A stretch of 64,000 nucleotides of DNA from Candidatus Poribacteria bacterium (GCA_965200395.1 CBDAUH010000003.1:810398-874397); one strand, 5' to 3'; counted from the stretch's first letter, positions 2,840 to 18,724 are shown. Translations and numbers: made by a program. The notes: generated by a model not told the origin, from the sequence alone.

Positions 2840-3805
2840 ATGTACTGGAAATATCAGATGGCACGTATCATTGAGGTTGCACACTTAATCCACAGAGAAC
2901 CTCGTAAATGGACACGGCTTCGATTATCAGAACATTTTGGTGTCAATAAGACGACTATTCAACGCGATATAGACCTTTTGCGTGAAATGGGAATTGCAAT
3001 TATGCCTTGTGGTAGACAGGGATATGAGATGATTTCAGACTTCTTCCTGCCTGCTCTCAATTTGTCTTTTGAGGAGGCACTTGCACTAGTTATCGCAGCA
3101 GATTTCTATAAAGCAACGGAAGGGGAACACGCAATTGAAGTGCTTGATCAGGCAATTCACAAGATTACATGCAATTTGCCGGACCAGACGAATCGCGCGC
3201 TAAAGCAGCTCGCACCGAAGATTGAGGTGTCGTATCAACAAGTCAGTCCAATTGATGAAACTGAATCATATAAAGAGTTGTTATACCAAGCAAGCAGGGA
3301 AAGGACGAGGGTAATTATAACCTATAATTCCTTCAGCAGCCAAAAGGAGACTCGTCATAGACTTGCACCGTATGCGGTGCTGTTTCGTAAACGTGCCTGG
3401 TATGTCATCGGATGGTCTGAAACTACTAAACAGGTTTTTACCTTCCGTATCAACCGTATTAGTTCGCTTTCTATTACACATGGTGGTTATGAAATTCCCT
3501 CGGATTTCTCTGTTCAGAAATACCTTGAGAAAAGTTGGGATGTGATGCTTGGAGAAGATACACACGTTGTGATTTTATTTGCCAAACGTATTGCACCTTT
3601 GATTCAGGAGGTGAAATGGCATCCGACACAGCAGATACAAGAGGCAGATAAAGGAAGCTTTCGCTTTGAGGTAACAGTTGCAGGTTGGCAAGAGATCGGT
3701 TGGTGGGTTTTGGGTTGGGGACATGAGGCGAAGGTGATTAAACCGAAAGCATTGCGCGATTGGATCGCTCAAACAGCACGGAAAATGGTAAAGTTGTATG
3801 AATGA
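2840..3805 (+). CDS. WYL-domain transcriptional regulator (N-terminal HTH, WYL, C-terminal WCX-like)
   Basis: N-terminal DeoR-like HTH (FGVNKTTIQRDIDLLRE) and central WYL-like segment (YAVLFRKRAWYVIGW). The size of 321 aa is typical, and the gene sits upstream of the cas genes. Confidence 0.6.
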   Translation: MYWKYQMARIIEVAHLIHREPRKWTRLRLSEHFGVNKTTIQRDIDLLREMGIAIMPCGRQGYEMISDFFLPALNLSFEEALALVIAADFYKATEGEHAIEVLDQAIHKITCNLPDQTNRALKQLAPKIEVSYQQVSPIDETESYKELLYQASRERTRVIITYNSFSSQKETRHRLAPYAVLFRKRAWYVIGWSETTKQVFTFRINRISSLSITHGGYEIPSDFSVQKYLEKSWDVMLGEDTHVVILFAKRIAPLIQEVKWHPTQQIQEADKGSFRFEVTVAGWQEIGWWVLGWGHEAKVIKPKALRDWIAQTARKMVKLYE

Positions 3806-3859
3806 GATCGGATTGTGTAATGGACAATACGCTAGTGTACTGTAAGTTGAATAGCTATT

Positions 3860-4150
3860 GGTTTAAGTTCTTTTTTCAGAATCGCGGATTACACCAAATC
3901 AACGGTATGAATGCCATTGAGGCATTCCCCGGATTACGCGGATTTCATTTTTCAGAATCGCGGATTTTCGTTTTTCAGAATCGCGGATTACACGGATTAC
4001 GCGGATTGACGCGGATTTTAAGAGTTTGGTATTCACATGTTTAATGGATAGATGGGCATGTTCTGGGACATCATATTTTCTGAGTTGAGGATTGCGCGAA
4101 TTAGGTTGTTCGTCTGAATCGCGGATTACGCAGATTGACGCGGATTAGAT
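3860..4150. repeat. Array of GAATCGCGGATT(A/T)C short repeats embedded in roughly 80-bp units, plus a roughly 140-bp block repeated at 18400..18560
   Basis: CGCGGATT-type units are visible many times. 3972..4110 aligns at about 85% identity with 18405..18545. Confidence 0.8.
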
Positions 4151-4235
4151 GGCAGGTGCTTCAGCGGAGTTAGAGAAATATGGGAATGAGGAACTACACA
4201 AAATTTTTTCTCAAGTAAAGGAAACAGACATGCTT

Positions 4236-4470
4236 GTCTCACTTTAAAACAGAAAACCACCCGATAGAGGGTGGGCAACCTATTCTCCCAGCCGGCTGGG
4301 AGGCAGCATGGCATACGCAACAGTTTTCGGCCGCTATTTTACTCCTGATCTTCGACAGAAAACCACTTCCATAAAAAGTGGGCGACTTATCCTACTGAAC
4401 GGTCAGCAGGCAGCATGGCATACGCAACAGTTTTCGGCCGCTATTTTACTTCTGGTGTCTATTATAGATT
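4236..4470. repeat. Tandem direct repeat (2 units of about 105 bp), each with two hairpins followed by the conserved GCAGCATGGCATACGCAACAGTTTTCGGCCGCTATTTTACT
   Basis: Unit 1 has hairpins CCACCCgatagaGGGTGG and CCCAGCCGGCTGGG. Unit 2 has CCACTTccataaaaAGTGG and CTGAACGGTCAG. The 40-nt 3' block is identical in both. Confidence 0.75.
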
Positions 4471-4619
4471 ATACTCTTTTTTGCATGTAATGTCAATTTC
4501 TTTTTAGCAAAAAGCAGAACCTACATCCACCGCTAAGGGAGGGTTCAGTCCTGCACTGTAAATATTATAACATTAACCCAAGATTAAGTTAATCTTTTTC
4601 CAGAGGCATTCAAAAGTCG

Positions 4620-4900
4620 ATTTTACCAAATCTCGGAGAACGCGGATTTTTGTTTTGTCTGAATCGCGGATTTTCACCGAATCGACGGTATGAATACTAT
4701 TTAGGTATTCCCCGGATTGCACGGATTTTCGCGGATTAGTTTTTTGATGCTTCAGGCGTGAGTTTCACAGGATGAGAATAAACGCAAGATTGCGGATTTT
4801 CGCGAATTAGGTGGCTGGTATTTCAAGATGCTTTTCATTTTCTAAATCGCGGATTTCGTCACATCGACGGTATGAATGTTATTTAGGCATTCCCCAGATT
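4620..4900. repeat. Further copies of the roughly 80-bp CGCGGATT-containing unit, with the GAATGCCATTGAGGCATTC-type hairpin
   Basis: Units at about 4648-4730 and 4838-4910 match the unit at 3885-3960. Confidence 0.7.
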
Positions 4901-5065
4901 ATCTTTGTCAGCATTGCGGAGGACGCTAAGTCCGAGATAATTGAATGGTTCTGAATCTTTTTCAGAATAAATAAAATTAAGCAACATTTTTTTAATATTT
5001 TTTCATCGGACGCAGGCTTATGTGACTGGTGGTGTGGTATACTTAATAAAAAAGGAGGATCCAAG

Positions 5066-7291
5066 ATGGTCATAGATAACCAACAGAAAGATCAGATCTT
5101 AGCCGCTCACTTTGCGACGACAAACCTGAGTGACGCTGCGGCATTCTTTGAGGCGTTTGTTCATCGGATGCACTGTGACAGAAAGTTTGATCAACTCAAA
5201 CATTGGTGGGACGATATGGATGCATTGCGCGTAATCCGAGCCGCCGAGCATCATATAAGGAGGCAGACATCAGAAACCGAATCATCTCCAGATCCGATTG
5301 AAAGTCCCTCTGTGGGTGAGGATGGACGTATCCAGTTTATGGGAGAACCCATTGGTAAGGTTCATAATTATTACCGTACCGTGCTTCCACAAGAGATGCA
5401 GATTCGACTTGCTTATGACACCCTAATTGAGCGATTTATGGAATTCTTACAAAGAGAGAAATGTGCTATTCGACTTTCTGAAAATCAATTGACAATTAGC
5501 CTGTTTATTCCCGGTCCCGATTTTCAACTTGAAGCTGCATGGCAAAGGTTCATTGAAAAATTCGCTTACTCCGAAGAAGAATTGTATAAATCCTTCACAC
5601 TGTTTGTGAATAGCCTGAAACTGACTGACAGAGGTTTTGGTTACGTTCACTTTCCATCGGTAACGGAAGATATGAAACTTTTGCAAGCGGCGTTTTATAT
5701 TGCTACACTTGAAGAAAGGGTCGTTCGGTACCCTGATAATTATAGGAAAGCCAAAACTGACGAAGATCGACGGACTGCCGCGATGGAGAATAGGGGAGGG
5801 CTCAAGCAACTCTTAACCGAATTGCGCCATGAATTGCAGGCAAGCACTCACATCTCCGATGAATCCGATAAAGTTGTAAGGCTTTTCGATAAGGCTTTAG
5901 ATCTTTCTCGCCGATTCAACAAAGCTGGCAAGACCCAATTTTCTTACGGTACAGTAAAACCTCGCGCCCAAAATGGGAAAATTGAAGATAAGATTATTGA
6001 CATTCTAACTGAACAAGTAAAACCTCTACGGTGTCCACTTGCTTCAATTGACGAAATAGCACAAGATTCCGAACAGAGTGCTGGAGATACTGCCAAAAAT
6101 CGGTGTTACAGCTGTAGCAGACCTATGCCTCCCAGAAGCGAAATCCGTCGTTTTAAAGGCAAATTGGAGGCAAATCGATTTGTTTTCTCAGCACCTTCGC
6201 AAAGATTACAATCTGGCGGCGTGCAAGTTCAACCTCCTATATGTTTTGATTGTTTAACAGTTGCTTTCGGTTGTCCGATAAAATTAACAGGGGACGCGAT
6301 CATCGTTCGTTTGTCGCCTGACGAAGAAAACGAATCGGTTTCAACTAAGAGGTATCTCCAAATGTTAACCCTCGGTGAACTCAATTTGATTGCTGGGCAG
6401 TATCTACTGATTAAGTGTAACGATTATGTAGGTTCAACGCCCGTATCAGAAAAAATAGGACCGGTTCAATATACACTCTGGCGAGTAGCACAAACACTGC
6501 CAACTACTGTGCTCGAAAAGATGAAGTTCACACTTTTCGCTGGAGAATCTGGGATTCCGATGTCGAGTAGACATCTTGTTTGGTTAAGTCTACTCAATGA
6601 AATTTTTTCACCGAACCTTGTTGTTGGAAAACGAGATAACATTCCGCTCGGGCAGGCAATCCGACTCGTACAAAAAGACGAAGTAATCTCAGCAATCTAT
6701 AAACTAGTAACAGCAGAACCAGGCGAATCTAAACCACTCAAAAATTGGTCATATAGTGAAAAACGGAGTCTTGAGGAACTCCGCGAAAAACACTGTGACT
6801 TACTTGAACAATTCTCGAAAGGAGATAAACTCATGTCGAAACAGGCAGACTTTTACCGTGACGTAGCTGCCCTTACCGGGTTAACTTATGCTTATTGCGA
6901 TTACTTCCGCAGGGAGGTAAGAGAAAAAGAGAACGTTGACCCGGTCCGCGAAGTCAAGAAGCTCATTGAGAAAGTTATAAATCCGAGTTTTTTCAACTAC
7001 GAAGCCTCTGATGTTCTTTCTGGTACGAGAGCTACGATGTACCGAAATCACGATAACTATTTCTGTTACGATCAGGCGAAGTTGTTGTTGGAAAACACTC
7101 TCAAGGTGCAACTGTCTGATCGTGTAAGGTCCGATGAGAAAGGTCCCGAACCGCTGGCAATTTACTTTGACGACATTCTGAACGCTTACGCTGCGTTGTC
7201 TGAAAAATATGATAGTAAGGCACAGCAACGGAAGTTAACTTATCAACTTAAATTGAACCTCTACGCGAAGTTCGCATTCCTATTCAATTAA
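5066..7291 (+). CDS. cas8: Cas8/Cas10-like large subunit of a type I effector complex (741 aa, internal Cys-rich Zn-finger region)
   Basis: First gene of the cas operon with a strong RBS AGGAGG. Cys cluster CYSC…(37 aa)…CFDC. No HD motifs seen. The call rests mainly on position and size. Confidence 0.45.
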   Translation: MVIDNQQKDQILAAHFATTNLSDAAAFFEAFVHRMHCDRKFDQLKHWWDDMDALRVIRAAEHHIRRQTSETESSPDPIESPSVGEDGRIQFMGEPIGKVHNYYRTVLPQEMQIRLAYDTLIERFMEFLQREKCAIRLSENQLTISLFIPGPDFQLEAAWQRFIEKFAYSEEELYKSFTLFVNSLKLTDRGFGYVHFPSVTEDMKLLQAAFYIATLEERVVRYPDNYRKAKTDEDRRTAAMENRGGLKQLLTELRHELQASTHISDESDKVVRLFDKALDLSRRFNKAGKTQFSYGTVKPRAQNGKIEDKIIDILTEQVKPLRCPLASIDEIAQDSEQSAGDTAKNRCYSCSRPMPPRSEIRRFKGKLEANRFVFSAPSQRLQSGGVQVQPPICFDCLTVAFGCPIKLTGDAIIVRLSPDEENESVSTKRYLQMLTLGELNLIAGQYLLIKCNDYVGSTPVSEKIGPVQYTLWRVAQTLPTTVLEKMKFTLFAGESGIPMSSRHLVWLSLLNEIFSPNLVVGKRDNIPLGQAIRLVQKDEVISAIYKLVTAEPGESKPLKNWSYSEKRSLEELREKHCDLLEQFSKGDKLMSKQADFYRDVAALTGLTYAYCDYFRREVREKENVDPVREVKKLIEKVINPSFFNYEASDVLSGTRATMYRNHDNYFCYDQAKLLLENTLKVQLSDRVRSDEKGPEPLAIYFDDILNAYAALSEKYDSKAQQRKLTYQLKLNLYAKFAFLFN

Positions 7292-7307
7292 AAAGGAGAT
7301 TAAGCAA

Positions 7308-7524
7308 ATGGCAATTAACGTGAGATCAGGGCTTGAGAATAATTCGAATGAACCCCGTTTCCACTTTGATATTTATGCAATTCTTGAAGGAGGCCAAGAA
7401 CTTTATTTTGGGCATGAGACACAAGTAAACGTAAGTATTGTTGAAATGGTCAGTATTGCTTCACCTGATAGCACAAATGAAGAAAACGTAGTCGAGAAAT
7501 GTTATATTTCCCCTACAAAACGCC
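7308..7524 (+). pseudogene. cas7: cas7 N-terminal part (interrupted by the IS4-family insertion)
   Basis: The ORF runs into the IS left end at 7525. Its frame rejoins 8875..9644 after removing the IS plus the TSD. Confidence 0.6.
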
Positions 7525-8863
7525 CGCACTTACCCCCATTTTTTTTTGAATGCGTGTGTAGTTGTGTTCATAGGTTTCCAATGTTGTCATGTCAGTTCTT
7601 CTGCGGTGAGAAAGTTTATATCTCTCAAACAAGTCCTCTCGGTGAACAAGAGCAACGCCTCCTGCGTCCACACCTCGCGGATCATACGGTTGATGACACT
7701 GATCACGGAGTAAACTTTCCGCGTAGGGTGTAAAGTTTTTGCCCATCTGTCCGCAGCTTTTTCATAACACAGGAACGCCAAACCATAAGCCACGACTGCC
7801 AACAAAAACAGAACTTCCATCCGGGGCTGTTCGTTCTTTCTCAAAACGAGTGCTTTGAAACCGAAGTTCGTTTTCAAGTCTCTGAACCCGTGTTCAATCT
7901 GTGTCCGCCGCTTGTAGCAAGTTCGCAGGGGGTTCCCCTGAAGCCGATTGGAGATAAGATATAACGGGTCTTTCTTGGTGTGCTGTCCCCCAACATAGAG
8001 TGCCACAGGCACCTGCTCCGTGTAGTGATAAAGCACTTGTGGGTAAAAACCATTTGCCACTTCTTCAAGGCACTGCTTGTTGCCTGCTATACGCACACCA
8101 ACATTGCGTGGCACACGCATCAAGTAGCAGATGCCTTGCCCCTCAAAAAACTTGAGGATCGCTCTCGCTCGGGCGAACCCTCTGTCAAAAACCAACACAG
8201 GCTCCCGACTATCCCCTAACACTTCAGCAACGCGACTATGGACATCACAACAGAACTGCTGAACTAAATCGTTATGTCCTTGATAGGTGCCATCTTTGAG
8301 CATCTCATTTTTATACAGAACCCAATAGAGCGGGATCGCACGATTGCGAAACGGAAGGGCTGCAACAATCGCCTTCCATCCGCCCGGTAAATCTGTCTCG
8401 TCTATCAGCACAAGCAGATGCTGCATCCCCACAGAACGACACACACTGACAACTATATGTGACAACCAGGCACCCTTCACCGCTGCAACCGGAAAATAGG
8501 TGTCAATAAACCGCAACACACGCTTTTGCTTAGACTTGTCGTGTTTCACACGGATAGGTAGATGTGAGGCAATCGATTGAATACGAAAACTCGGGGCTAC
8601 ACACACAGCCTGTAGCATCAAATAAAAGTTGCGGAGCGTCGGTTTTTTGATACAAACCCCGTTGAAAACTTTACGAAAACCTGTTATAATCTTTCTGGGG
8701 TGTACCCAACTAAGGGTATATTTCATAAGAATACCTCCCTGCCGGTTTTTCACCGACATTGGTTTATATGGAGGTATTCTACCATAACCCATCAGACTTT
8801 CCAACTTATTTCTATACACACACACGCCTACACATACCGCATACAAAAATGGGGGTAAGTGAG
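7525..8863 (-). mobile_element. IS4-family element copy 1, 1339 bp, 19-bp terminal inverted repeats (CGCACTTACCCCCATTTTT / AAAAATGGGGGTAAGTGAG), TSD 9 bp (flanks match over 11 bp, TACAAAACGCC)
   Basis: Identical to 14116..15454. The flanks (7514-7524 and 8864-8874) are direct repeats. Confidence 0.85.
7587..8846 (-). CDS. IS4-family DDE transposase (LVLIDETD; C-terminal Y..R…E…K motif), 419 aa
   Basis: Same ORF as 14178..15437. The 508-aa ORF in the track (7587..9113) is a read-through artefact beyond the IS end. Confidence 0.8.
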   Translation of the reverse strand: MYAVCVGVCVYRNKLESLMGYGRIPPYKPMSVKNRQGGILMKYTLSWVHPRKIITGFRKVFNGVCIKKPTLRNFYLMLQAVCVAPSFRIQSIASHLPIRVKHDKSKQKRVLRFIDTYFPVAAVKGAWLSHIVVSVCRSVGMQHLLVLIDETDLPGGWKAIVAALPFRNRAIPLYWVLYKNEMLKDGTYQGHNDLVQQFCCDVHSRVAEVLGDSREPVLVFDRGFARARAILKFFEGQGICYLMRVPRNVGVRIAGNKQCLEEVANGFYPQVLYHYTEQVPVALYVGGQHTKKDPLYLISNRLQGNPLRTCYKRRTQIEHGFRDLKTNFGFKALVLRKNEQPRMEVLFLLAVVAYGLAFLCYEKAADRWAKTLHPTRKVYSVISVINRMIREVWTQEALLLFTERTCLRDINFLTAEELT

Positions 8864-9644
8864 TACAAAACGCCGGGGTGTCGAACGTCGCGCATTGATT
8901 TGGGCCCCAACAGATACTGGGTTGCTCGGTGATATGTGGAATTGCGGTATCCCCCACACTTGTAGTAAAGCCGAATGTCCTATCTGTCGTGTTTTCGGGG
9001 GGCTTATTACAAGTAAAATTGAAGTCGATACCGAAGTCGAAGGTGAGAAGGAAGAACGGCCTGCGACAACCCTCGTCGGGCGCCTCACGCACAGTGGTGG
9101 GGTAGCAATCCAAGAGTTAGGGCCTGAAGAAAAACAGCGGGCAATGCATCCTTCACGACTCCGGCAAGAAGGAGATGAAACACCGATGCCCTTCAAACGA
9201 GAGTACAATCAGCCAGGATTGCTCTACCCGGTTTATAACCATTGTATGAGTATAACGGAAAGAGAATTTTCTTCTGTGGCTTATGCGTTTATGGGCGCGT
9301 TAGCACGATTAGGGGCAGGTAATCCGAAAGGTGTTAAGATTCATGATGCCCCGAAGTTGATAAAAGAGGACGTGGATGAACCCTGGATTGTTGTTGATCG
9401 ATACCTCGCTCCGCTTGGCAAGCGTCCTATTGTTTCACCTGCCATTGGAGATGTTGAAGAAGCAAAAAGTCAGTTTAGAGAAGCCGCTTTTTCTGTTGCA
9501 GGCAACAAGCGAGAACCTACCAGCGAGTTAACACAAGGGAATTTTCACCGATACATTGGGGATGCTGCTATTGCCAAGTTATCGACGTATCTGGTTCAAT
9601 TTGAAGAGGAGGTACTCGATGTGGATGCTGGAACTAACAATTAA
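8864..9644 (+). pseudogene. cas7: cas7 C-terminal part (about 257 aa) with a C-x5-C-x4-C-x2-C zinc finger
   Basis: Continues the frame of 7308..7524 (…ISPTKR|RGVERRAL…). The reconstructed protein is about 330 aa and lies between the large subunit and cas5. The Zn finger is CGIPHTCSKAECPIC. Confidence 0.5.
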
Positions 9645-10401
9645 ACCGACATCGGGATTGACGTTCCGACGGATGCCATCATCTATCTTGCATATCAGTA
9701 CGTACCCGTTTCTGCCGCCGACGACGATGTCCGGTTTCCTCCGCCGACTTAAGCTGCTGGAAGCCGGGCATCTCCCGGAAACCGCCGTTAAAAATCCGGA
9801 TTACTACGCGCTGCCCCCTCAACTTTGCACCCTTGGGGCATATCCGAAAGTCAACGAGCATCGCATTCATACAACAAAGCGTCAGGGCATCAGATCTTTC
9901 AACCATAACGCCTTTTCGCGAATCGTTCTTTACCAATCCACAAAGGAAGTATATCAACTTCATACATGGGAATACCTCTTCGCGGAGAAGCTTATCGGTT
10001 ATGTAGTTTCAGAAGATGAAAACTTGCTAAACCAATTAAAAACGGTTAAAAACTTCGGTTGTAAAATTGGCAAAGAAGGATACGCTTATGTAGATCAGAT
10101 TAGGGGACCGACAGAGCTCAGTTTAGAACACGTAACCGCGAAACCTGATACGCTCCTGCCTGGAGCAGTACTTGTCGGAGTTCCATGTGAGGCGTTTCCA
10201 CTGTACCGTTACGCTTGGAAAACAGGGATATCTGAAAACACAAACCTTGAATACCCAGAACCAAGCGCTATTGAGGGATTCGTTCCATTTGTCGCCGGAG
10301 AGATTCACGGCGAGATTGAACTTGATTACTATACTGATGGGAACGTCTATCTTCCGAAACCTTTCGTTGATGAATTGTGGGAAGGAGAAATAAATGACTA
10401 A
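9619..10401 (+). CDS. cas5: Cas5 (N-terminal motif STYPFLPPTTMSGFLRR typical of Cas5)
   Basis: Cas5-type N-terminal signature (Y-P-x-P-P-x-T-x-x-G). Overlaps the cas7 end in the coupled-translation manner. Confidence 0.6.
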   Translation: MWMLELTIKPTSGLTFRRMPSSILHISTYPFLPPTTMSGFLRRLKLLEAGHLPETAVKNPDYYALPPQLCTLGAYPKVNEHRIHTTKRQGIRSFNHNAFSRIVLYQSTKEVYQLHTWEYLFAEKLIGYVVSEDENLLNQLKTVKNFGCKIGKEGYAYVDQIRGPTELSLEHVTAKPDTLLPGAVLVGVPCEAFPLYRYAWKTGISENTNLEYPEPSAIEGFVPFVAGEIHGEIELDYYTDGNVYLPKPFVDELWEGEIND

Positions 10402-11179: not shown

Positions 11180-13050
11180 ACGCCTATAAACAATTTACGG
11201 AATTTGCTCCTAATCCAATGCAGGAAGAACTTTTTACTTACATCGCCCCGAAAGGCGAAAATCCTGCACTGCTACTTAAGGCACCCACGGGCAGTGGAAA
11301 AACAGAGGCTGTACTCATACCGAGTCTTGATTCCAATCGCAGGCTTTTTCTGATTTTCCCTTCTAGAAGCCTTGTTGACGATCAGATTAGTCGGTGTGAA
11401 GAATACCTTGAACGAGCATCATCAGAAAATATGAATAGATCTTATACATTAGTCGTTGACACAGGAGCCGAATCCCAGCGTACCGTTTTTACAAAAGGCG
11501 AGAGAGAAAAACCTGCAAGACGACATCTCTATGATGGTGATGTAATTCTCACAACATTTGATAAATTTCTATACCGCTTTTTCGGATTTGGTGAACCTAA
11601 GAAATCTTATATTTTCCCGTTCCGTATTCACTACGGCCAACGTCGAAATCTGTTTTGTTTCGACGAGGTTCACGCCTATGATCAGGTTGCGTTTGTCAAC
11701 TTTCAACGCCTTGTCAAGGCACTTTACAAAGTTAATTTAGATATGGTTGTCATGACTGCGACGATGCCTGATACATACCAAAATGAATTGGATTTCTTGG
11801 ATACGGTTGACTATATTACAGACGATAAAAATAAGCTGGAATTGGCAAGAGTGCAAAAAAGGCAGTATCCCAATAAAGCGGTCAAGTGTATTGCTGCAAA
11901 GCCCAAAGAAGTTAAGAACAAAATATGTGATTATGTCTCGGAACGATATGAAACAGATAAACGGATTATTGTTACTATTGAAACAATTAAAGACCTCATT
12001 CTAGTTTACAATGACTTGAAAGAAGTAAATGGTGGAGAGAATATTTTTCTTTACCACGGGCGTCTCTCTAATCCACAGCGCAAGATGGTTTATCGTAACC
12101 TGAAGAATCTTGAAAAAGAGAATAAGGGGTACCTCCTTTTCACGACGAGTGCTATTGAGGTAGGATGTGACCTTGACGCGCATCTGCTCATCACCGAGTT
12201 GTGCAACCCCGATTCGCTTATTCAACGCGTAGGAAGGTGCAACCGCAAAGGGCAGATTCCTAACGCTGAAATCGCCATTGTAGGTAACAAAATTCCATCT
12301 TTTCTCTCTATCCTTACTGAAGAAAAAACAGAGAAATATCTTGAGAAATTGCGGCAACAGAGTGGCACTAACTTCAAACCAGACGACATCCTTGAACTCA
12401 TGGAATACACACCACATTCCGATTACAGGGCAGAAGTACTTTTTGACATGCTTTATGAATACGTTTATGAAGCACGTCTCGAAAACAAACCGCTGCACGA
12501 TAGAGGACTTGTGATTACACGGAGTTTTGAACCCTCAATTACGCTTACAACCAAAGTCCCTGAAGAAGAGGCAAAGCACCAACCCGAAAATGCTGTAAGT
12601 GTGTCTATCCGAAATTGTATAGCGAGACGAGAAGATAATGAGTCTATCAACCCAGATTTTAAGGTATACCATAGGTTTTATGATAAGTATTATGAGGAAT
12701 TTAAATTTGTTGATCTTAACCGGCACGGAAGTGTCTACTTTAAAGAACTCTTTATTGAAGTTCCTGAATCTTATTTTTCTGAAGAGTTAGGCTACGTTGA
12801 ACCGCCCAAAGTATTTGAAGACCGGGGGACTCGCGGGTACCGTCGGAATTTTGTTTATCACACGACCGATGAAAACGGTAAACCTAAAGAAACATGGTTG
12901 CACTATCTGAAGGATTTGGAAAAGTCAGATCCAGAGGAAACATCATCTTTACTTCCAGAATCTGTTCAGACAGAACGTCACGAGTCGGTGGAATCTATTT
13001 TGTCGCACCCAGAAGGCGGTGAACAGTTGTCACTTTTTGATATTGATTAA
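11140..13050 (+). CDS. cas3': Cas3' DExH-box helicase (Walker A APTGSGKTEA, DEVH box CFDEVHAYD)
   Basis: SF2 helicase motifs, and a size of about 630 aa typical of a Cas3 helicase without HD. The true start is probably Met at 11164. Confidence 0.7.
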   Translation: MSKEGDDFMSSTLNAYKQFTEFAPNPMQEELFTYIAPKGENPALLLKAPTGSGKTEAVLIPSLDSNRRLFLIFPSRSLVDDQISRCEEYLERASSENMNRSYTLVVDTGAESQRTVFTKGEREKPARRHLYDGDVILTTFDKFLYRFFGFGEPKKSYIFPFRIHYGQRRNLFCFDEVHAYDQVAFVNFQRLVKALYKVNLDMVVMTATMPDTYQNELDFLDTVDYITDDKNKLELARVQKRQYPNKAVKCIAAKPKEVKNKICDYVSERYETDKRIIVTIETIKDLILVYNDLKEVNGGENIFLYHGRLSNPQRKMVYRNLKNLEKENKGYLLFTTSAIEVGCDLDAHLLITELCNPDSLIQRVGRCNRKGQIPNAEIAIVGNKIPSFLSILTEEKTEKYLEKLRQQSGTNFKPDDILELMEYTPHSDYRAEVLFDMLYEYVYEARLENKPLHDRGLVITRSFEPSITLTTKVPEEEAKHQPENAVSVSIRNCIARREDNESINPDFKVYHRFYDKYYEEFKFVDLNRHGSVYFKELFIEVPESYFSEELGYVEPPKVFEDRGTRGYRRNFVYHTTDENGKPKETWLHYLKDLEKSDPEETSSLLPESVQTERHESVESILSHPEGGEQLSLFDID

Positions 13051-13061
13051 GGAGACACCCC

Positions 13062-13889
13062 ATGCCTATCAGCACACGCATCTCACTCGTCCCGGAAACT
13101 GATGTAACACTCCGCCCGACGATGGGACATCACGCACACGCGGCTTTTCTTGCTATCCTACGCAGAAGTGACCCTGATCTTGCGGAGACACTCCATGCGC
13201 AATCAACACAAAAACCCTTCACCGTCTCACCACTCGTCGCGAAGGCAAAGCAGTACGCCAAACAACTCCATATCCGGGCAGGCACGGAATGCAAACTCCG
13301 ATTCACATTCCTTGACGATACGCTCTTCACAGCTTTCGGGCGTGCCTTCCTAAAATTTCAACTCCCTAAGATTAGGCTTGGCAGCGCGATTTTTCAGGTC
13401 AAACAACTCGTTTCACATGCAACGGAGGCGGAGGATTGGAGCGGTAACACGACATATCCCGATCTCGTCCAATCAGCGAAAGCGGAGGCGGACATTCGTC
13501 TCAAATTCCATTCGCCGACAGCCTTTCGTACTCTCACACCGCAGGGACAGAAAACGTATAACCACACGCAAGTCGATCCTATTCGGTGCTATCAGAGTTG
13601 GATTAACAAATGGAACGCCTTTGCACCGTTCCAATTTGACAGAGACGAACTCCGTGCCTTTATTACAGAAAACGCCCGCGTTTCTCGTACCGAGACGCGC
13701 ACTCAAGCCCTCAATTTCGGCAGACAGACTGAGATAGGATGGGTAGGAACGTGCACATTTCATTTTCAACACAAAAACGTGCTTAATGAAGACCTACTCC
13801 GCGCAGCCAATTGCTTAGCAGATTTCGCATTTTACTGCGGCACAGGATATAAAACTACAATGGGAATGGGACAAACAAAACGGATTTAA
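13062..13889 (+). CDS. cas6: Cas6 crRNA endoribonuclease
   Basis: N-terminal catalytic His region (GHHAHAAFLAIL), KPFTVSPL motif, and C-terminal glycine-rich loop CGTGYKTTMGMGQ (GhGxxxxxGhG). Confidence 0.8.
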   Translation: MPISTRISLVPETDVTLRPTMGHHAHAAFLAILRRSDPDLAETLHAQSTQKPFTVSPLVAKAKQYAKQLHIRAGTECKLRFTFLDDTLFTAFGRAFLKFQLPKIRLGSAIFQVKQLVSHATEAEDWSGNTTYPDLVQSAKAEADIRLKFHSPTAFRTLTPQGQKTYNHTQVDPIRCYQSWINKWNAFAPFQFDRDELRAFITENARVSRTETRTQALNFGRQTEIGWVGTCTFHFQHKNVLNEDLLRAANCLADFAFYCGTGYKTTMGMGQTKRI

Positions 13890-13904
13890 AATAGGAGTAA
13901 AACT

Positions 13905-14115
13905 ATGTCAGAAACATACATACCACTCTCACAGATAAACACTTATGTCTTTTGTCCCCGGCGATTCTATTACGAATCCATTGAGGGACATCAAGTCGTC
14001 AATGAGCATGTCGAAGAAGGCAAAATCAAACATGAACACGTTCACACAGCCGTGACAGATCGAAAAAAAGGAGACAAAACCATCTCTCGCCGACAATACC
14101 TCGCCTCCGATACAC
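13905..14115 (+). pseudogene. cas4-cas1: cas4-cas1 fusion, N-terminal Cas4 part (interrupted by IS4-family copy 2)
   Basis: Cas4 N-terminal Cys motif (YVFCPRRFYYE). The ORF runs into the IS at 14116. After removing the IS plus the TSD, the frame continues into 15464..16890. Confidence 0.75.
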
Positions 14116-15454
14116 CGCACTTACCCCCATTTTTTTTTGAATGCGTGTGTAGTTGTGTTCATAGGTCTCCAATGTTGTCATGTCAGTTCTTCTGCGGTGA
14201 GAAAGTTTATATCTCTCAAACAAGTCCTCTCGGTGAACAAGAGCAACGCCTCCTGCGTCCACACCTCGCGGATCATACGGTTGATGACACTGATCACGGA
14301 GTAAACTTTCCGCGTAGGGTGTAAAGTTTTTGCCCATCTGTCCGCAGCTTTTTCATAACACAGGAACGCCAAACCATAAGCCACGACTGCCAACAAAAAC
14401 AGAACTTCCATCCGGGGCTGTTCGTTCTTTCTCAAAACGAGTGCTTTGAAACCGAAGTTCGTTTTCAAGTCTCTGAACCCGTGTTCAATCTGTGTCCGCC
14501 GCTTGTAGCAAGTTCGCAGGGGGTTCCCCTGAAGCCGATTGGAGATAAGATATAACGGGTCTTTCTTGGTGTGCTGTCCCCCAACATAGAGTGCCACAGG
14601 CACCTGCTCCGTGTAGTGATAAAGCACTTGTGGGTAAAAACCATTTGCCACTTCTTCAAGGCACTGCTTGTTGCCTGCTATACGCACACCAACATTGCGT
14701 GGCACACGCATCAAGTAGCAGATGCCTTGCCCCTCAAAAAACTTGAGGATCGCTCTCGCTCGGGCGAACCCTCTGTCAAAAACCAACACAGGCTCCCGAC
14801 TATCCCCTAACACTTTAACAACGCGACTATGGACATCACAACAGAACTGCTGAACTAAATCGTTATGTCCTTGATAGGTGCCATCTTTGAGCATCTCATT
14901 TTTATACAGAACCCAATAGAGCGGGATCGCACGATTGCGAAACGGAAGGGCTGCAACAATCGCCTTCCATCCGCCCGGTAAATCTGTCTCGTCTATCAGC
15001 ACAAGCAGATGCTGCATCCCCACAGAACGACACACACTGACAACTATATGTGACAACCAGGCACCCTTCACCGCTGCAACCGGAAAATAGGTGTCAATAA
15101 ACCGCAACACACGCTTTTGCTTAGACTTGTCGTGTTTCACACGGATAGGTAGATGTGAGGCAATCGATTGAATACGAAAACTTGGGGCTACACACACAGC
15201 CTGTAGCATCAAATAAAAGTTGCGGAGCGTCGGTTTTTTGATACAAACCCCGTTGAAAACTTTACGAAAACCTGTTATAATCTTTCTGGGGTGTACCCAA
15301 CTAAGGGTATATTTCATAAGAATACCTCCCTGCCGGTTTTTCACCGACATTGGTTTATATGGAGGTATTCTACCATAACCCATCAGACTTTCCAACTTAT
15401 TTCTATACACACACACGCCTACACATACCGCATACAAAAATGGGGGTAAGTGAG
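14116..15454 (-). mobile_element. IS4-family element copy 2, 1339 bp, identical to copy 1, 9-bp TSD CCGATACAC (14107-14115 and 15455-15463)
   Basis: Exact sequence identity with 7525..8863 and flanking 9-bp direct repeats. Confidence 0.9.
14178..15437 (-). CDS. IS4-family DDE transposase, 419 aa
   Basis: ORF inside the IS. Carries LVLIDETD, DRGF and YKRRTQIEHGFRDLK motifs. Confidence 0.8.
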   Translation of the reverse strand: MYAVCVGVCVYRNKLESLMGYGRIPPYKPMSVKNRQGGILMKYTLSWVHPRKIITGFRKVFNGVCIKKPTLRNFYLMLQAVCVAPSFRIQSIASHLPIRVKHDKSKQKRVLRFIDTYFPVAAVKGAWLSHIVVSVCRSVGMQHLLVLIDETDLPGGWKAIVAALPFRNRAIPLYWVLYKNEMLKDGTYQGHNDLVQQFCCDVHSRVVKVLGDSREPVLVFDRGFARARAILKFFEGQGICYLMRVPRNVGVRIAGNKQCLEEVANGFYPQVLYHYTEQVPVALYVGGQHTKKDPLYLISNRLQGNPLRTCYKRRTQIEHGFRDLKTNFGFKALVLRKNEQPRMEVLFLLAVVAYGLAFLCYEKAADRWAKTLHPTRKVYSVISVINRMIREVWTQEALLLFTERTCLRDINFLTAEELT

Positions 15455-16890
15455 CCGATACACTCGGTGTCTCTGGCTACACCGATCTTGTTGAGGAGAA
15501 AGACGGTATTCCCTATCCAGTAGAATTCAAAAAAGCAGGCATGGGAAACTGGCTCAACGATCAAGTACAACTCTGTTTACAGGGACTTTTATTAGAGGAA
15601 AAGACAGGAATTTCTATTCCACACGGCTATATTTTCTATATCGGTTCTAAACGGCGTCGGAAGGTACCGTTTGATAAAGAACTCCGTAGGGCAACACACC
15701 AATACGTGGCAGAAGCGCGTTCACTCTTAGATACTAGACAGATTCCAGAACCTGTTCATGACAACCGGTGTAATGGGTGCAGCGTCCAATCAATCTGTCT
15801 ACCGGATGAGGTCGCCTACCTCCATGAGTTAGATGAGCGGCCCAAACGCATTAAACCCGCACTCGGTATAGACAATGTCTTATATGTTGACGAACCGGGC
15901 TGTGCAATCAAAAAGACAGGGGAGCGACTCCTTGTCGTCAAAGAAAGCGAAACAATTCGAGATATTCCACTGATTCATCTCGGACAGGTAGTTATCTGCG
16001 GTAATGTCAGTTTGACAACGCCTGCGATGCAAACGCTTTTACATGAGGGTATTCCCGTTGTGTTTCTCTCTGCCTATGGACGCTACCAGGGTGCTTTGAC
16101 ACCGCAAGTGTCACGCAATTCACTTTTGCGGACCGCACAGCATCGCGCCGCAGCTAACAATACACAGTGCCTTGACCTCTCGAAAGCATTTGTTCACGGA
16201 AAACTGGTGAACATGCGAACGATGCTTCAACGTAGAAAATGGCAGGCTTCGGATAGCACAGATTCGGCTTTAGAACCGCTGATCACCAACATAAAGACTA
16301 TACAAGCGATGGAAAAACGGATTGATAAGGCAACAGATATCACCGAATTGTTAGGATTGGAAGGCAACGCGTCCGCCGCCTATTTCCGTTCATTCAACTT
16401 TATGCTAAAAGAAGAAGTGGGATTCGATTTTCAAAAACGGAGTCGACGTCCACCCGCTGACCCAATAAACGCATTGCTCAGCTTCGCTTATTCATTATTG
16501 ACAGCAGATATAAACTCAGCACTTCAGGTTGTCGGCCTTGACCCTTATGTCGGTTATTTTCACCAGTTGAAATATGGTAAGCCTTGCCTTGCCCTGGATT
16601 TGATGGAGGAATTTCGACCAATTATTGCAGACTCCGTTGTCATTACCTTGATCAACAACCGGCGCATCAAACCTGAAGATTTTACGCAATCTCATGACGG
16701 TTGGTATCTGAAAGATAATTCTCGGAAAGTATTCTATGCTGCTTATGAAACGCGGAAAAATGAGACAATCACGCATCCTGTCTTCAAGTATAAACTGACG
16801 TTCCGCCGGGCAATGGAATTGCAAGCACGATTGCTGGCTAAATATCTTACAAGCGAAATTGACCGTTATACGCCCTTGACAATTCGGTAA
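15455..16890 (+). pseudogene. cas4-cas1: cas4-cas1 fusion, C-terminal part: Cas4 RecB-nuclease motifs (GYTDLVEEKDG, PVEFKKAG), Fe-S cysteines (CNGCSVQSIC), then a full Cas1
   Basis: Reconstructed junction …SDT|LGVSGYTDLVEEKDGIPYPVEFKKAGMGNW… is in frame with the 449-aa ORF at 15541. That ORF carries a Cas1-like C-terminal domain. Confidence 0.75.
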
Positions 16891-16919
16891 TACGAAAGCT
16901 TACAAATAAGGAGTCAATA

Positions 16920-17192
16920 ATGCATTACACAGTTGCTTATGATATTACGGATGACAAACGTAGGAACAAAGTCGCTAAAATTTTGAAGGACTTTGGAGCC
17001 CGTGTGCAGTACAGTGTCTTTGAGTGTAATATTGACCGTCGTGCATTTCTACAGTTGCAAAATCGCTTGAAACAAGCTATGAATTTGAGCGAGGATACTA
17101 TAACATTTTATCATATCTGTGCTGCATGTGAGAAACAGATTGAACGTATCGGTCAAGATAAAGGACTTGATAAACAGTCGTATATTGTATAG
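16920..17192 (+). CDS. cas2: Cas2
   Basis: 90-aa protein with the typical Cas2 N-terminus (YDITDDKRRNKVAKILKDFGARVQYSVFEC). Lies directly upstream of the leader and array. Confidence 0.85.
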   Translation: MHYTVAYDITDDKRRNKVAKILKDFGARVQYSVFECNIDRRAFLQLQNRLKQAMNLSEDTITFYHICAACEKQIERIGQDKGLDKQSYIV

Positions 17193-17391
17193 AATTAAAC
17201 ATGAAATGGTTTCTGTGAGCGGCAGCGGGCCGGAAACGTCTAGACCCTCACAGAGAGGCATGATCTCTTATGTCTACTGACTTGAATCTTTTGCTCGGGC
17301 AGCTATACTGTTTTCCGCCAGTGCCGAAAGCTTCGCTCACAGAAACGTGTGCTGCTAACGCACACGTAATAAGGGTTCAAATAGAGCGGGC
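17193..17391 (+). promoter_or_regulatory. CRISPR leader (between cas2 and the first repeat). Contains a 12-bp long-range inverted repeat TTTCTGTGAGCG…CGCTCACAGAAA.
   Basis: Its position relative to cas2 and the array. The distal terminal repeat is degenerate, consistent with this being the leader end. Confidence 0.6.
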
Positions 17392-18385
17392 CTTGAAATC
17401 AAAAGCATCTCGATTACGAGATTGAAACATGCGCGTGACTGCCGGCAATATCCGTGAAGATATCTTGAAATCAAAAGCATCTCGATTACGAGATTGAAAC
17501 ATGCGCGTGACTGCCGGCAATATCCGTGAAGATATCTTGAAATCAAAAGCATCTCGATTACGAGATTGAAACATGCGCGTGACTGCCGGCAATATCCGTG
17601 AAGATATCTTGAAATCAAAAGCATCTCGATTACGAGATTGAAACTGAGATTGTAGCACATCGTCAACAAGCTGCCGTTTACTTGAAATCAAAAGCATCTC
17701 GATTACGAGATTGAAACTCCGCATAAGTGCCTTCATTGATAACAACATCCTTCGCACTTGAAATCAAAAGCATCTCGATTACGAGATTGAAACCATGGCA
17801 GCACGCACCCTGAGCTGCCGCCTGCAACCTTGAAATCAAAAGCATCTCGATTACGAGATTGAAACCGCAAAGACTGGGAGCGATCAGAGGCGAAGTATCT
17901 GCTTGAAATCAAAAGCATCTCGATTACGAGATTGAAACTAGACTGCTGATCGTGCCAGTACCAGTGCCACCAATAGAGCTTGAAATCAAAAGCATCTCGA
18001 TTACGAGATTGAAACCAAGTTGCTCATGGATTTCTGGCATGTAGTGGTCGGCCTTGAAATCAAAAGCATCTCGATTACGAGATTGAAACGTAGTTAAGCA
18101 GCCAGCTGACGCTGCCGTTGCTGGTAACTTGAAATCAAAAGCATCTCGATTACGAGATTGAAACGTGGTTAATAGGTTTCGCAAGATTTCATCTCTATTC
18201 ACTTGAAATCAAAAGCATCTCGATTACGAGATTGAAACTGTAGAGAGTAGCCAGCATGTAAGGGACATCCAGACATCTTGAAATCAAAAGCATCTCGATT
18301 ACGAGATTGAAACATTGGTGTTCCAGCAGGTCAGGCGATCGCAAGTTGCTTGAAATCAAAAGCATCTCGATGACGAGAATAGCGT
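17392..18385 (+). CRISPR. CRISPR array: 14 repeats (37 bp, CTTGAAATCAAAAGCATCTCGATTACGAGATTGAAAC) and 13 spacers (35-40 bp). The last repeat is degenerate at its 3' end. Spacers 1-3 are identical.
   Basis: Repeats at 17392, 17464, 17536, 17608, 17681, 17757, 17829, 17902, 17979, 18053, 18128, 18202, 18277 and 18349 (degenerate). There is an internal 6-bp stem ATCTCG/CGAGAT. The 3' ATTGAAAC matches the common Cas6-generated 8-nt 5' handle. Confidence 0.95.
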
Positions 18386-18607
18386 GGGTTCGGTTTCCTG
18401 GCTTGTCAGAATCGCGGATTTTCACGGATTACGCGGATTTACGCGGATTTTAAGAGTTTGGTATCCACACATCCTAATGGATAGATGGGCCTCTTCTGGG
18501 ATGTCACATTTTCTGGGCTGGGGATTGCGTGGATTTACTCGGATTGGTTGGTGCTTCCATGTGCTTTTCGTAGGATTTGGTGCTTTCGTCACCTTCTATG
18601 TGGCACG

Positions 18608-18722: not shown

Positions 18723-18724
18723 GG

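Follow-up and report, generated by a model that had tools for sequence, protein, structure and literature searches.

Does the CRISPR-Cas locus at positions 2840–18,385 of the window, a 64,000-nucleotide stretch of DNA from a Candidatus Poribacteria bacterium, represent a new kind of type I system? The original prediction, read from the sequence, took it for an undescribed or rare type I variant. All the components that it listed are present on the plus strand (Table 1), in the order WYL regulator gene, cas8, cas7, cas5, cas3'', cas3', cas6, cas4-cas1, cas2, and array. This order literally fits none of the textbook I-A to I-G layouts, and the type I character, the split Cas3, the position of cas6 after cas3, and the Cas4-Cas1 fusion are all borne out. 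The novelty is not. The locus belongs to a known lineage and two of its essential genes are broken by IS copies; it is therefore a decaying member of a known family, not a new kind of system.

Table 1. Features of the locus, in positions of the window
Feature	Position	Strand	Evidence or remark
HTH-WYL-WCX regulator gene, intact, 321 aa	2840–3805	+	Pfam and PADLOC WYL models
Degraded spacer region, CGCGGATT-type short repeats	3806–4150	.	Sequence read; CGCGGATT clustering
DUF3800 gene 3' remnant, about 45 codons, internal stop	4092–4248	+	tblastn
Structured small RNA gene, promoter-distal of tandem pair	4245–4350	−	Terminator-like hairpin and U-tract, 4274→4257
Structured small RNA gene, promoter-proximal	4351–4457	−	Terminator-like hairpin, 4381→4363
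Consensus sigma-70 promoter, TTGACA-17-TATAAT, 12/12	4468–4496	−	Drives small RNA pair
Conserved stretch 5' of cas8, putative operon promoter and RBS	4995–5065	+	Promoter function putative
cas8, Thermus-type "Cas8b" family large subunit, 741 aa	5066–7291	+	PADLOC PDLC01527, E 1.5e-118
Predicted internal small subunit Cas11, 152 aa	6833–7291	+	In-frame ATG (M590) at 6833
cas7 5' fragment, codons 1–72	7308–7524	+	
IS4-family copy 1, 1339 bp	7525–8863	− (transposase)	Interrupts cas7
cas7 3' fragment	8875–9644	+	Joined to 7308–7524, gives 328-aa Cas7
cas5, 260 aa	9619–10401	+	PADLOC Cas5b PDLC01389, 1e-78
cas3'', putative stand-alone HD nuclease, 261 aa	10394–11179	+	Homology to fused Cas3 N-terminus
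cas3' DExH helicase, 636 aa	11140–13050	+	TIGR01587 cas3_core, 165 bits (cutoff 102)
cas6, 275 aa	13062–13889	+	TIGR01877, 73 bits (cutoff 58.65)
cas4-cas1 fusion 5' fragment	13905–14115	+	
IS4-family copy 2, 1339 bp	14116–15454	−	Interrupts cas4-cas1
cas4-cas1 fusion 3' fragment	15464–16890	+	Reconstructed product 545 aa
cas2, 90 aa	16920–17192	+	TIGR01573, 69 bits; best PADLOC model Cas2d
Putative leader, cas2 to first repeat	17193–17391	+	Position only
CRISPR array	17392–18385	+	13 intact 37-nt repeats and 1 degenerate terminal repeat

Family assignment of the locus

The PADLOC CAS-I-B profiles PDLC01527, PDLC01388, and PDLC01389 match Cas8, Cas7, and Cas5 with E values of 1.5e-118, 5e-109, and 1e-78, respectively; a second I-B Cas5 model of PADLOC matches Cas5 weakly (5e-08). 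The same three profiles match the Thermus thermophilus HB8 pTT27 proteins over the full length (1017, 473, and 465 bits), and are centred on the Thermus-type family itself. Cas8, Cas7, and Cas5 go unmatched by the canonical I-B models of NCBIfam and Pfam, so that the I-B label stands on one family-specific curated profile set. The claim that the large subunit and Cas7 lack a family signature holds for the general Pfam and NCBIfam models but fails for the PADLOC profiles, which place the locus confidently in I-B, with related loci already catalogued.

Each of the nine proteins has a homologue in collinear position both on pTT27 and on a plasmid of Picosynechococcus (45–53% identity for Cas7). 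The gene order is identical in 20 Poribacteria loci, and more than 20 Poribacteria genomes conserve it in all. Cas5 identity in relatives is 70–85%. The split cas3''/cas3' recurs in Acidobacteriota, which have the fused cas4-cas1 too, in Chloroflexota, and on an additional contig from metagenomic data (L154), whereas cas3 is fused in Thermus and cyanobacteria. The WYL regulator (Pfam WCX, 6e-19; WYL, 1.3e-15; HTH_11, 3e-07) has an orthologue 5' of cas8 in most relatives (59–77% identity) and in Thermus.

The I-B locus on pTT27 of Thermus HB8/HB27 (TTHB226–TTHB231 region; Cas8b, Cas7b, Cas5b, Cas3b, and Cas6-1/TtCas6B were compared) draws every component from the same protein families, with identities of 45% for Cas7, 45% for Cas5, 39% for the Cas3 helicase, and about 30% for Cas8. 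Both loci have the order WYL-cas8-cas7-cas5-cas3-cas6 and a repeat in which ATTGAAAC comes after a short hairpin. The Thermus Cas3 is, however, a fused HD-helicase of 817 aa, and its cas4, cas1, and cas2 are separate and divergently transcribed, whereas the window has a fused cas4-cas1 after cas6 and two IS insertions. Already in 2013 the Thermus member was known as a "hybrid Type I operon" (PMC3902920), and experiments have been done on the HB27 "type I-B" system: its Cascade (Cas8b, Cas7b, Cas5b, and Cas6, with Cas3 co-purifying) was purified, cleaves DNA, mediates plasmid interference, and was used for genome editing, with TTC as the PAM (PMC10989782, PMC12102369). We consider it very probable that the locus belongs to a known type I lineage of which this Thermus system is the studied representative.

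Relation to type I-D and other subtypes

The large subunit contains four conserved cysteines (C347/C350/C393/C396) forming a zinc finger and has no HD domain, as had been proposed. Of the 184 homologues, all those listed are unnamed or "hypothetical", and no HMM links the protein to solved Cas8b or Cas10d. A Shine-Dalgarno sequence, AAAGGAG, is located at 6818–6824 ahead of the internal ATG at 6833, and 15 of the 22 Poribacteria cas8 genes that were checked carry this signal. M590 is invariant in a 12-sequence Poribacteria alignment, and many stand-alone matches of 150–170 aa begin at query residues 590–593. By analogy with I-B, I-C, and I-D, Cas11 is probably translated separately from within cas8. 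The stretch just 5' of cas8 is 89% identical to its equivalent in one related locus (L015) and is conserved in three others (L001, L002, and L020).

Neither NCBIfam, Pfam, nor PADLOC has an HD or Cas3 model that matches the 261-aa protein taken for the HD nuclease. This protein is assigned by its collinear homology with the N-terminal 190–250 residues of fused Cas3 (Thermus and Picosynechococcus) and by the invariant motifs H, HD, H, HH, and D (H34, H68-D69, H98, H116-H117, and D156), which make it a good candidate for Cas3''.

Several components resemble those of type I-D, for which Synechocystis PCC 6803 pSYSA (Cas10d, Cas7d/Csc2, and Cas5d/Csc1) was used in the comparison. The modelled fold of Cas7 is closest, among solved structures, to Cas7d/Csc2, and in Synechocystis Cas7d a cysteine-rich CPxC-x2-YG motif sits where the Cas7 family of the window has a comparable one. 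The best PADLOC models are Cas3d (CAS-I-D, 1.3e-67) for Cas3', Cas6d (6.9e-43) for Cas6, which has both the N- and C-terminal Pfam Cas6 domains, Cas4d for Cas4, and Cas2d for Cas2; Cas3' scores 149.8 with the Cas3g model, far under the cutoff of 400. The reconstructed Cas4-Cas1 passes TIGR04093 Cas1d (399.5 bits, cutoff 385), though its best-scoring model for Cas1 is the I-G fusion, NF049935 cas4g_cas1g (634 bits, cutoff 560). A WYL regulator adjoins the Synechocystis I-D system as well, and the predicted self-regulatory targets of nine relatives, described later, have PAM-like GTT or GTG flanks, in agreement with the 5'-GTN PAM of I-D (PMC9123187) and at variance with the TTC of the Thermus work.

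These features leave some room for a lineage that is an I-D offshoot or an I-B/I-D chimera, with the HD on Cas3 or alone and a large subunit that lost the HD or never had it. We regard such an origin as doubtful. The window has no Cas10d, profile comparison reveals no similarity between its large subunit and Synechocystis Cas10d (hhalign probability 0.2%), and the HD is encoded by a gene of its own beside cas3'. In its order, cas8-cas7-cas5-cas3, the locus follows I-B and departs from the cas3'-cas10d-csc2-csc1 of Synechocystis I-D, and Cas3' scores 54.8 with the I-D Cas3' model TIGR03158, under its cutoff of 69.1.

Compared with canonical I-B systems (Haloferax, Clostridium, Synechocystis PCC 6714, and the I-B CAST Cascades), the order cas8-cas7-cas5-cas3 followed by cas4, cas1, and cas2 is common, as are the Cas6-processed crRNA with an 8-nt handle and the lack of a separate cas11 gene. 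However, Cas8 and Cas7 have no sequence or HMM similarity to solved I-B subunits, cas6 lies after cas3 instead of first, and Cas3 is split. The resemblance to I-G is in the Cas4-Cas1 fusion; the Csb2-type Cas5-Cas6 fusion (cas5 and cas6 are separate here), Cas8g, and Cas7g are absent. A type I subtype of its own, undescribed or very rare and apart from I-A to I-G, would accord with the unusual order, with the lack of Pfam or NCBIfam Cas matches and of sequence relatives among solved structures for Cas8, Cas7, Cas5, and the HD protein, and with the mere 113 representatives of the Cas8 family (50% clustering) among 1.84 billion clustered proteins, but is most improbable given curated profiles built on the same family, the long-known Thermus member, and a Cas7 family of about 700 clusters across Deinococcota, Cyanobacteria, Chloroflexota, Acidobacteriota, and Poribacteria.

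IS4-family insertions in cas7 and cas4-cas1

The listed cas genes are present, but cas7 and cas4-cas1 are interrupted; the original prediction made no mention of inactivation by two IS insertions. The two IS4-family copies differ by 4 mismatches, each has 22-nt inverted ends, and their transposase matches NCBIfam IS4 (1.9e-30) and Pfam DDE_Tnp_1 (1e-11). Copy 1 is flanked by the target-site duplication TACAAAACGCC (7514–7524 and 8864–8874) and copy 2 by CCGATACAC (14,107–14,115 and 15,455–15,463). Each copy has its own duplication and clean junctions, the mark of real transposition and not of misassembly. Excision in silico of the IS and one duplication gives open frames of 328 aa (cas7) and 545 aa (cas4-cas1), which align end to end with the uninterrupted genes of 20 related loci. 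The breaks part Cas7 residues 1–72 from the remainder and lie inside the Cas4 domain of Cas4-Cas1.

The gene disruption, read in a MAG consensus alongside which cells with an intact locus may exist, suggests that the system in the window is inactivated. [quoted passage not shown] In view of the duplications, the junctions, and the positions of the breaks, we give this very little credence; the public assembly likewise contains the Cas7 ORF in its truncated form (P0127). The loss of the upstream mini-array and DUF3800 gene and the triplicated newest spacers fit general decay.

Array, upstream region, and proposed working of intact relatives

The array repeat is CTTGAAATCAAAAGCATCTCGATTACGAGATTGAAAC (37 nt). 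Its 13 intact copies end in ATTGAAAC, in line with the proposed Cas6 5' handle, and the degenerate repeat sits at the end far from cas2. The first three of the 13 spacers, which are 35–40 nt long, share one sequence. Repeats of this type also occur in relatives, where the stem of the hairpin shows compensatory changes.

The degraded spacer region occupies the position of a promoter, a repeat-like mini-array, and the 5' part of a DUF3800 gene in relatives. No repeat-like element was found in this 5' region of the window, and homology to the relatives starts only at about 4150. The DUF3800 remnant was detected by tblastn with the protein of a related locus (L002; residues 144–199, 41% identity); full-length DUF3800 genes of relatives match Pfam DUF3800 at 7e-13 and 2e-08. 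The mini-array and most of the DUF3800 gene are thus lost, and the small RNA pair is retained.

In relatives, the mini-array is a promoter-driven pseudo-repeat/spacer/pseudo-repeat, with a spacer that matches about 15–17 nt at a site immediately downstream of another promoter. The mismatches are mostly at positions 6 and 12, which are left unpaired in known type I Cascade structures, or past position 15. The promoter of the DUF3800 gene is the predicted target. The pseudo-repeat architecture is that of CreTA and regulatory mini-arrays (Li et al. 2021; Shmakov et al. 2023, PMC10120712), although the predicted target is neither an RNA toxin nor cas8.

The small RNA units are arranged in tandem, about 105 nt each. 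The promoter-proximal one scores 116.7 bits with its covariance model; 97.4% of cells are paired, compensatory double changes occur in 15 of 28 pairs, and the pairing was reached by none of 500 shuffles. An equivalent promoter precedes the unit in all 12 carrier loci (TTGAC/TTGAT −35 and TATAAT-like −10, in the clearest form TTGACA with TATAAT/TATACT). A conserved structured RNA that carries a Rho-independent terminator of its own and lies beside an opposite-strand DUF3800 gene recalls the DUF3800-I to XI motifs (Weinberg et al. 2017, PMC5737381); here, however, it is a tandem pair inside a CRISPR-cas locus and matches no Rfam family, even at E values up to 10.

Homology, synteny, the insertions, and the RNA structure are read directly from the loci; the mechanistic steps are drawn from the Thermus work and general type I knowledge. 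In intact relatives, Cas6 would cut the pre-crRNA at the base of the repeat hairpin to leave the 8-nt 5' handle, and Cas8, internally translated Cas11, several Cas7, Cas5, and Cas6 would form Cascade. This complex would locate PAM-flanked DNA and form an R-loop, and the stand-alone HD nuclease and the Cas3' helicase would degrade the target. The Cas4-Cas1 fusion and Cas2 would insert spacers at the leader end, and the WYL protein may control transcription. In the window, the IS4-family copies that split the genes for the Cascade backbone and for adaptation would leave the system inactive, and the upstream regulatory and cargo module of the relatives has shrunk to a gene remnant and two small RNA genes.

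Gene row, array and insertion sequences

According to the ORF listing and translation, all genes of the cas locus are co-directional, and the CRISPR array follows them (table). The order is WYL, cas8, cas7, cas5, a predicted HD nuclease gene (cas3''), cas3', cas6, cas4-cas1, and cas2. This gene order and these components agree with the original prediction and are confirmed here, with the addition that two of the genes are disrupted by insertion sequences. Two copies of an IS4-family element, each coding for a DDE transposase, lie in direct orientation, have 22-nt inverted ends, and differ from each other at four positions. Excision of each copy together with one flanking duplication gives an intact 328-aa Cas7 and an intact 545-aa Cas4-Cas1 fusion. 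Within the window, no third copy is found. The two copies bracket the segment from the 3' part of cas7 through cas5, cas3'', cas3', and cas6 to the 5' part of cas4, and recombination between them would remove 6.6 kb of the effector module. Another DDE transposase gene, of a different kind (Pfam DDE_5, DDE_Tnp_1), lies immediately upstream of WYL and adds to the signs of mobile-element load around the locus.

The array consists of 13 identical repeats of 37 nt (CTTGAAATCAAAAGCATCTCGATTACGAGATTGAAAC) followed, at its far end, by a degenerate one; spacers are 35-40 nt long. The three spacers nearest cas2 are identical (ATGCGCGTGACTGCCGGCAATATCCGTGAAGATAT), suggesting that the repeat-spacer unit was duplicated by recombination or slippage rather than acquired on three separate occasions. 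An IMG/VR search gave no protospacers for three spacers, and none of the spacers has a counterpart in the window or in the related loci. Other parts of the window contain coding tandem repeats, both WD40-like ones of 126 nt and short in-frame ones of 15-21 nt, which are unrelated to the cas locus.

Positions of features in the window and in related cas loci (L numbers are handles of the related loci)
Feature	Sequence	Position (strand)	Details
Second DDE transposase gene	window	877-2154	Pfam DDE_5, DDE_Tnp_1
Gene row, WYL to cas2	window	2840-17192
DUF3800 remnant	window	4092-4248	last ~45 codons
Small RNA units	window	4245-4350 and 4351-4457 (-)	~105 nt each, tandem, directly after the DUF3800 stop codon
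Small RNA region including promoter	window	4245-4496 (-)
Small RNA pair	L002; L015; L019	9624-9838; 9549-9763; 8433-8676	also in 8 further loci
Small RNA promoter	window	4496-4468 (-)	TTGACA-17-TATAAT, perfect
GCAGGRCC...GGTYCTGC hairpin	window; L001; L022	4500-4560; 9820-9865; 9805-9850
Mini-array	L002; L015; L001; L022	8800-9020; 8740-8935; 8800-8990; 9230-9465	relatives
Candidate structured element	L001	9680-9800	downstream of the other DUF3800 type
Internal Shine-Dalgarno-like AAAGGAG	window	6818-6824	within cas8
In-frame ATG (M590)	window	6833	within cas8
IS4-family element, copy 1	window	7525-8863	1339 bp; transposase on minus strand; flanking duplication TACAAAACGCC
IS4-family element, copy 2	window	14116-15454	1339 bp; transposase on minus strand; flanking duplication CCGATACAC
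CRISPR array	window	17392-18385
Three identical spacers	window	17429-17607	nearest cas2
CGCGGATT copies	window	3883-4848 and 18413-19101	21 copies
GGTTATGCTACAA family	window	2655, 18866-18991, 24898, 51989-52122 (+)	7 copies
Coding tandem repeats	window	52792-53070, 35144-35299, 38544-38663

Cas proteins, relatives and subtype

Several of the proteins are recognized by general profile libraries. The DExH-family Cas3' matches TIGR01587 (cas3_core) of NCBIfam at 165.2 bits (cutoff, 102.45) and Pfam DEAD, Helicase_C, and Cas3-like_C_2. Cas6 is recognized by TIGR01877, and Cas2 is also recognized in NCBIfam. The reconstructed Cas4-Cas1 passes both the cas4g_cas1g (634 bits; cutoff, 560) and Cas1d (399.5 bits; cutoff, 385) models of NCBIfam, and the first gene has HTH, WYL, and WCX domains in Pfam. 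Neither Pfam nor NCBIfam gives any Cas-related match to the 741-aa protein (the large subunit, Cas8), Cas7, Cas5, or the 261-aa protein, the last having a sub-threshold DUF3891 match (E 0.0013) as its single match.

The locus had been read as a possibly undescribed or rare type I variant, and a profile check of the 741-aa protein and the reconstructed Cas7 had been proposed. That check refutes the reading. Both proteins match CAS-I-B profiles of PADLOC, the large subunit by the Cas8b effector_LS profile PDLC01527 (E 1.5e-118) and Cas7 by the Cas7b profile PDLC01388 (E 5e-109), and the Thermus lineage to which they lead is already catalogued. Cas5 likewise matches the Cas5b profile of CAS-I-B (PDLC01389, E 1e-78), so that Cas7, Cas5, and the large subunit of a type I Cascade are all present. 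The Thermus proteins themselves score 1017, 473, and 465 bits on the three profiles, and hence these profiles are built around the Thermus-type family.

The relation to Thermus is also seen in gene content. Against plasmid records, the Cas7 query finds Thermus thermophilus megaplasmids at 45% identity and Picosynechococcus plasmids at 53%. The megaplasmid pTT27 (HB8 and HB27) has the order WYL, 766-aa hypothetical protein, 293-aa protein, 263-aa protein, cas3, and cas6, with cas4, cas1, and cas2 divergent. Each window protein has a homologue on pTT27 in preserved order, as given by tblastn of all proteins against two compared loci, L024 and L025. The repeat type, hairpin-ATTGAAAC, is common to the window and this lineage. 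The operon containing TTHB231 (Cas6B) was termed a 'hybrid Type I operon' by Niewoehner et al. (PMC3902920). The HB27 system has been treated as type I-B; it gave plasmid interference and served in genome editing, TTC being the PAM (PMC10989782), and its Cascade (Cas8b, Cas7b, Cas5b, and Cas6, with Cas3 co-purifying) has been purified and DNA cleavage shown (PMC12102369).

The large subunit has 184 word-indexed homologues, the named ones all from Candidatus Poribacteria and annotated as hypothetical. Its family is small and self-contained; when 1.84 billion proteins are clustered at 50%, it has 113 representatives. The Cas7 homologues form ~700 clusters from Deinococcota, Cyanobacteria, Chloroflexota, Acidobacteriota, and Poribacteria. 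Scanning one genome per species yielded 23 loci, 22 from Poribacteria and one (L020) from an unclassified 'uncultured bacterium' MAG. All the long-enough loci have a single order in tblastn, namely that of the window, array included. The repeat type is the same in all relatives, with compensatory changes in the hairpin stem. In the long-enough loci, cas7 and cas4-cas1 each give one uninterrupted tblastn match, and therefore the IS insertions are specific to the window genome. A literature search on Poribacteria and type I-B found nothing.

The 261-aa protein (10394-11179) has no PADLOC match, and no HD library model is significant for it. It is collinear and homologous with the N-terminal part (190-250 residues) of the fused Cas3 in Thermus and Picosynechococcus. 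Among 12 sequences, His34, His68-Asp69, His98, His116-His117, and Asp156 do not vary; these are the residues to be expected in a Cas3 HD domain. The Thermus Cas3 HD domain itself reaches Pfam HD at E 0.015 only. The alignment and the invariant residues therefore indicate that the protein is Cas3'' from a split fused gene, and it is the predicted HD nuclease partner of Cas3'. In Phormidium, Thermus, and Picosynechococcus, cas3 is fused, whereas the window has cas3'' and cas3'. A stand-alone HD gene before cas3' is also found in a Chloroflexota contig, in another contig, and in an Acidobacteriota MAG, where cas4 and cas1 are likewise fused. The split thus occurs in other phyla, and the layout of the window is a common form of the catalogued lineage.

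The locus has no separate cas11 ORF. Translation of the small subunit from an internal start is established for types I-B, I-C, and I-D. Within cas8, AAAGGAG is followed by the in-frame ATG of Met590, a signal that a simple pattern search finds in 15 of 22 examined cas8 genes of Poribacteria. Met590 is invariant in an alignment of 12 Poribacteria sequences, and many stand-alone proteins of 150-170 aa in the representative library begin at query residues 590-593. From these observations we infer that internal translation of cas8 produces a predicted 152-aa Cas11. A small subunit predicted from the 3' part of cas8, without its own gene, is a feature of I-B.

The Cas8b signature of I-B is present through PDLC01527, a profile specific to the Thermus-type family. 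Single-sequence and profile searches link the Cas8 family to no solved large subunit, Cas8b included, and give no relatives of Cas8, Cas7, Cas5, or the HD protein among solved structures, only coiled-coil noise. The Cas8b membership is therefore one by curated label and not by demonstrated homology to canonical Cas8b.

PADLOC gives I-D profiles as the best for Cas3', Cas6, Cas4, and Cas2. A model of Cas7 required diverse homologues found with the Thermus protein, the shallow Poribacteria-only alignment having given a pLDDT of 36. The nearest solved folds are those of I-D Cas7d (7sba_A, 16.1) and T. pendens Csc2 (4txd, 14.5), before I-B Cas7 (8fcj_C, 12.8; 8h67_E, 10.5) and I-B Csh2 (7xz3_B, 9.2). 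A cysteine-rich CPxC-x2-YG motif of the window Cas7 has its like in Synechocystis Cas7d, where it occupies an equivalent position. However, I-D is defined by an HD-bearing Cas10d, and the lineage has no such subunit; the 741-aa protein lacks HD, and hhalign against Synechocystis Cas10d gives a probability of 0.2%. Subtype I-A shares the split Cas3, but there is no Cas8a or Csa5 match and no separate small-subunit gene. For I-G, the Cas4-Cas1 fusion model alone agrees; cas5 and cas6 are separate (no Csb2 fusion), and Cas8g and Cas7g give no matches. The lineage is best described as I-B by catalogue, with clear I-D affinities, and in the locus we see a member of this Thermus-type I-B lineage that is decaying in Poribacteria.

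The region between the WYL gene and cas8

In the relatives, the order from WYL to cas8 is a sigma-70-like promoter, a degenerate repeat, a ~34-nt spacer, a second degenerate repeat, a second promoter, and a gene for a DUF3800 protein of 200-238 aa (Pfam 7e-13 and 2e-08). Regulatory mini-arrays and CreA are built in this way (PMC10120712). The sequence directly after the second promoter matches the first 15-17 nt of the mini-array spacer. In nine of the 12 pseudo-repeat-bearing relatives, mismatches are mostly at positions 6 and 12 or beyond 15, and GTT or GTG precedes the match, in agreement with the 5'-GTN PAM of I-D (PMC9123187). For half of the 12 spacers, a match as good arises in no more than 3% of shuffles. 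In the relatives L008, L018, and L021, 12-78% of shuffles reach the match, and it is just the GTT/GTG flank and the mismatch pattern that speak for these three. In some class 2 CRISPR loci, DUF3800 serves as an accessory protein with an RNase H fold (PMC12669027, PMC10910872).

The window has no repeat-like element between WYL and cas8, and only the 3' end of its DUF3800 gene remains. The rest is replaced by short repeats of the CGCGGATT type. This octamer has 21 copies, where ~0.7 would be expected per strand; every copy lies in noncoding sequence flanking the cas locus, partly as a ~60-nt unit, AATCGCGGATT...ACGGTATGAAT...CCCCGGATT. The copies appear to be a short dispersed or MITE-like family that overwrote the regulatory region. 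A second dispersed family, with GGTTATGCTACAA, includes tandem copies just 3' of the CRISPR array.

Two tandem small RNA units lie on the minus strand, and the pair is kept in 11 related loci, beside the cas8 or WYL gene. The structure supported by an alignment of 19 copies comprises a closing stem, an internal stem of six pairs that encloses a small two-pair hairpin, and two hairpins. Compensatory double changes occur at 15 of the 28 pairs, and 97.4% of cells pair on the minus strand versus 93.9% on the plus strand. None of 500 shuffles reaches the observed values, and slid controls drop to 29-49%. Each unit is closed by a hairpin and U-tract, and an equivalent of the window's promoter is present in all 12 unit-bearing loci.

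Rfam gives no match at the gathering threshold, nor at E up to 10 over 3800-5100, and none in six related loci. ARAGORN finds no tRNA-like gene, and the conserved core, read by eye, does not fit a sigma-54 promoter. No consistent antisense targets (minimum length, 11 nt) emerged from a search within the loci. A metagenome scan with a 17-base gapped pattern gave chance matches only, the covariance model rejecting all 80 among the matches listed, and one weak match in a viral scan (16.7 bits) is regarded as chance. DUF3800 genes are accompanied by eleven unrelated structured RNA motifs, often followed by terminators, in either orientation (PMC5737381). The small RNA pair shares the DUF3800 association and the terminator with these motifs (DUF3800-I to XI in Rfam), though their covariance models do not match it. 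The pair is probably a new DUF3800-associated RNA motif. A working guess of low confidence is that these RNAs partner the DUF3800 protein, as its antidote or substrate, in a Cascade-controlled module.

Two other elements were observed nearby. A conserved GCAGGRCC...GGTYCTGC hairpin follows an A-run upstream of the putative cas8 promoter, and on the minus strand it reads as a terminator-like hairpin and then a U-tract. In L001, a relative with the other DUF3800 type (MHLIYIDDSG...), a different candidate element, seen by eye only, has a 13-bp long-range stem (CAGGACTTACGCA...TGCGTAAGTCCTG) around a GC-rich hairpin.

Placement of the locus and its meaning

A broader proposal, which we consider rather doubtful, is that the WYL-cas8 stretch is a previously undescribed safeguard or regulatory module and that the whole Thermus/Poribacteria lineage is an I-B/I-D chimera deserving its own variant name. 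In this view Cascade, guided by a CreA-like mini-array, would repress the gene of the RNase H-fold DUF3800 protein via the GTN-flanked partial target. The tandem ~105-nt RNAs on the opposite strand would be a twelfth, CRISPR-embedded class of DUF3800-partner RNA, for example an antidote or substrate. The window would then be the expected end state, in which loss of the mini-array and the DUF3800 gene removes the penalty for Cascade loss and an IS can disrupt cas7.

The I-D affinities, the predicted internal Cas11, the relatives' mini-array with DUF3800 as its predicted target, and the small RNA pair are side findings that leave the class of the main finding unchanged. The I-D ties of this so-called I-B lineage (Cas7 fold, GTN-like flank, and adaptation genes) bear on the boundaries of type I subtypes. 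The intact relatives provide a clean natural example in which a mini-array is predicted to target a cargo gene, here DUF3800, and the function of DUF3800 and its puzzling RNA partners have been standing questions since 2017. To CRISPR classification the locus adds little; it brings a catalogued, experimentally studied lineage to Poribacteria, with split cas3''/cas3' as the common layout outside Thermus and cyanobacteria. The window itself captures, in a Candidatus Poribacteria MAG, a CRISPR-Cas system decaying through insertion sequences.
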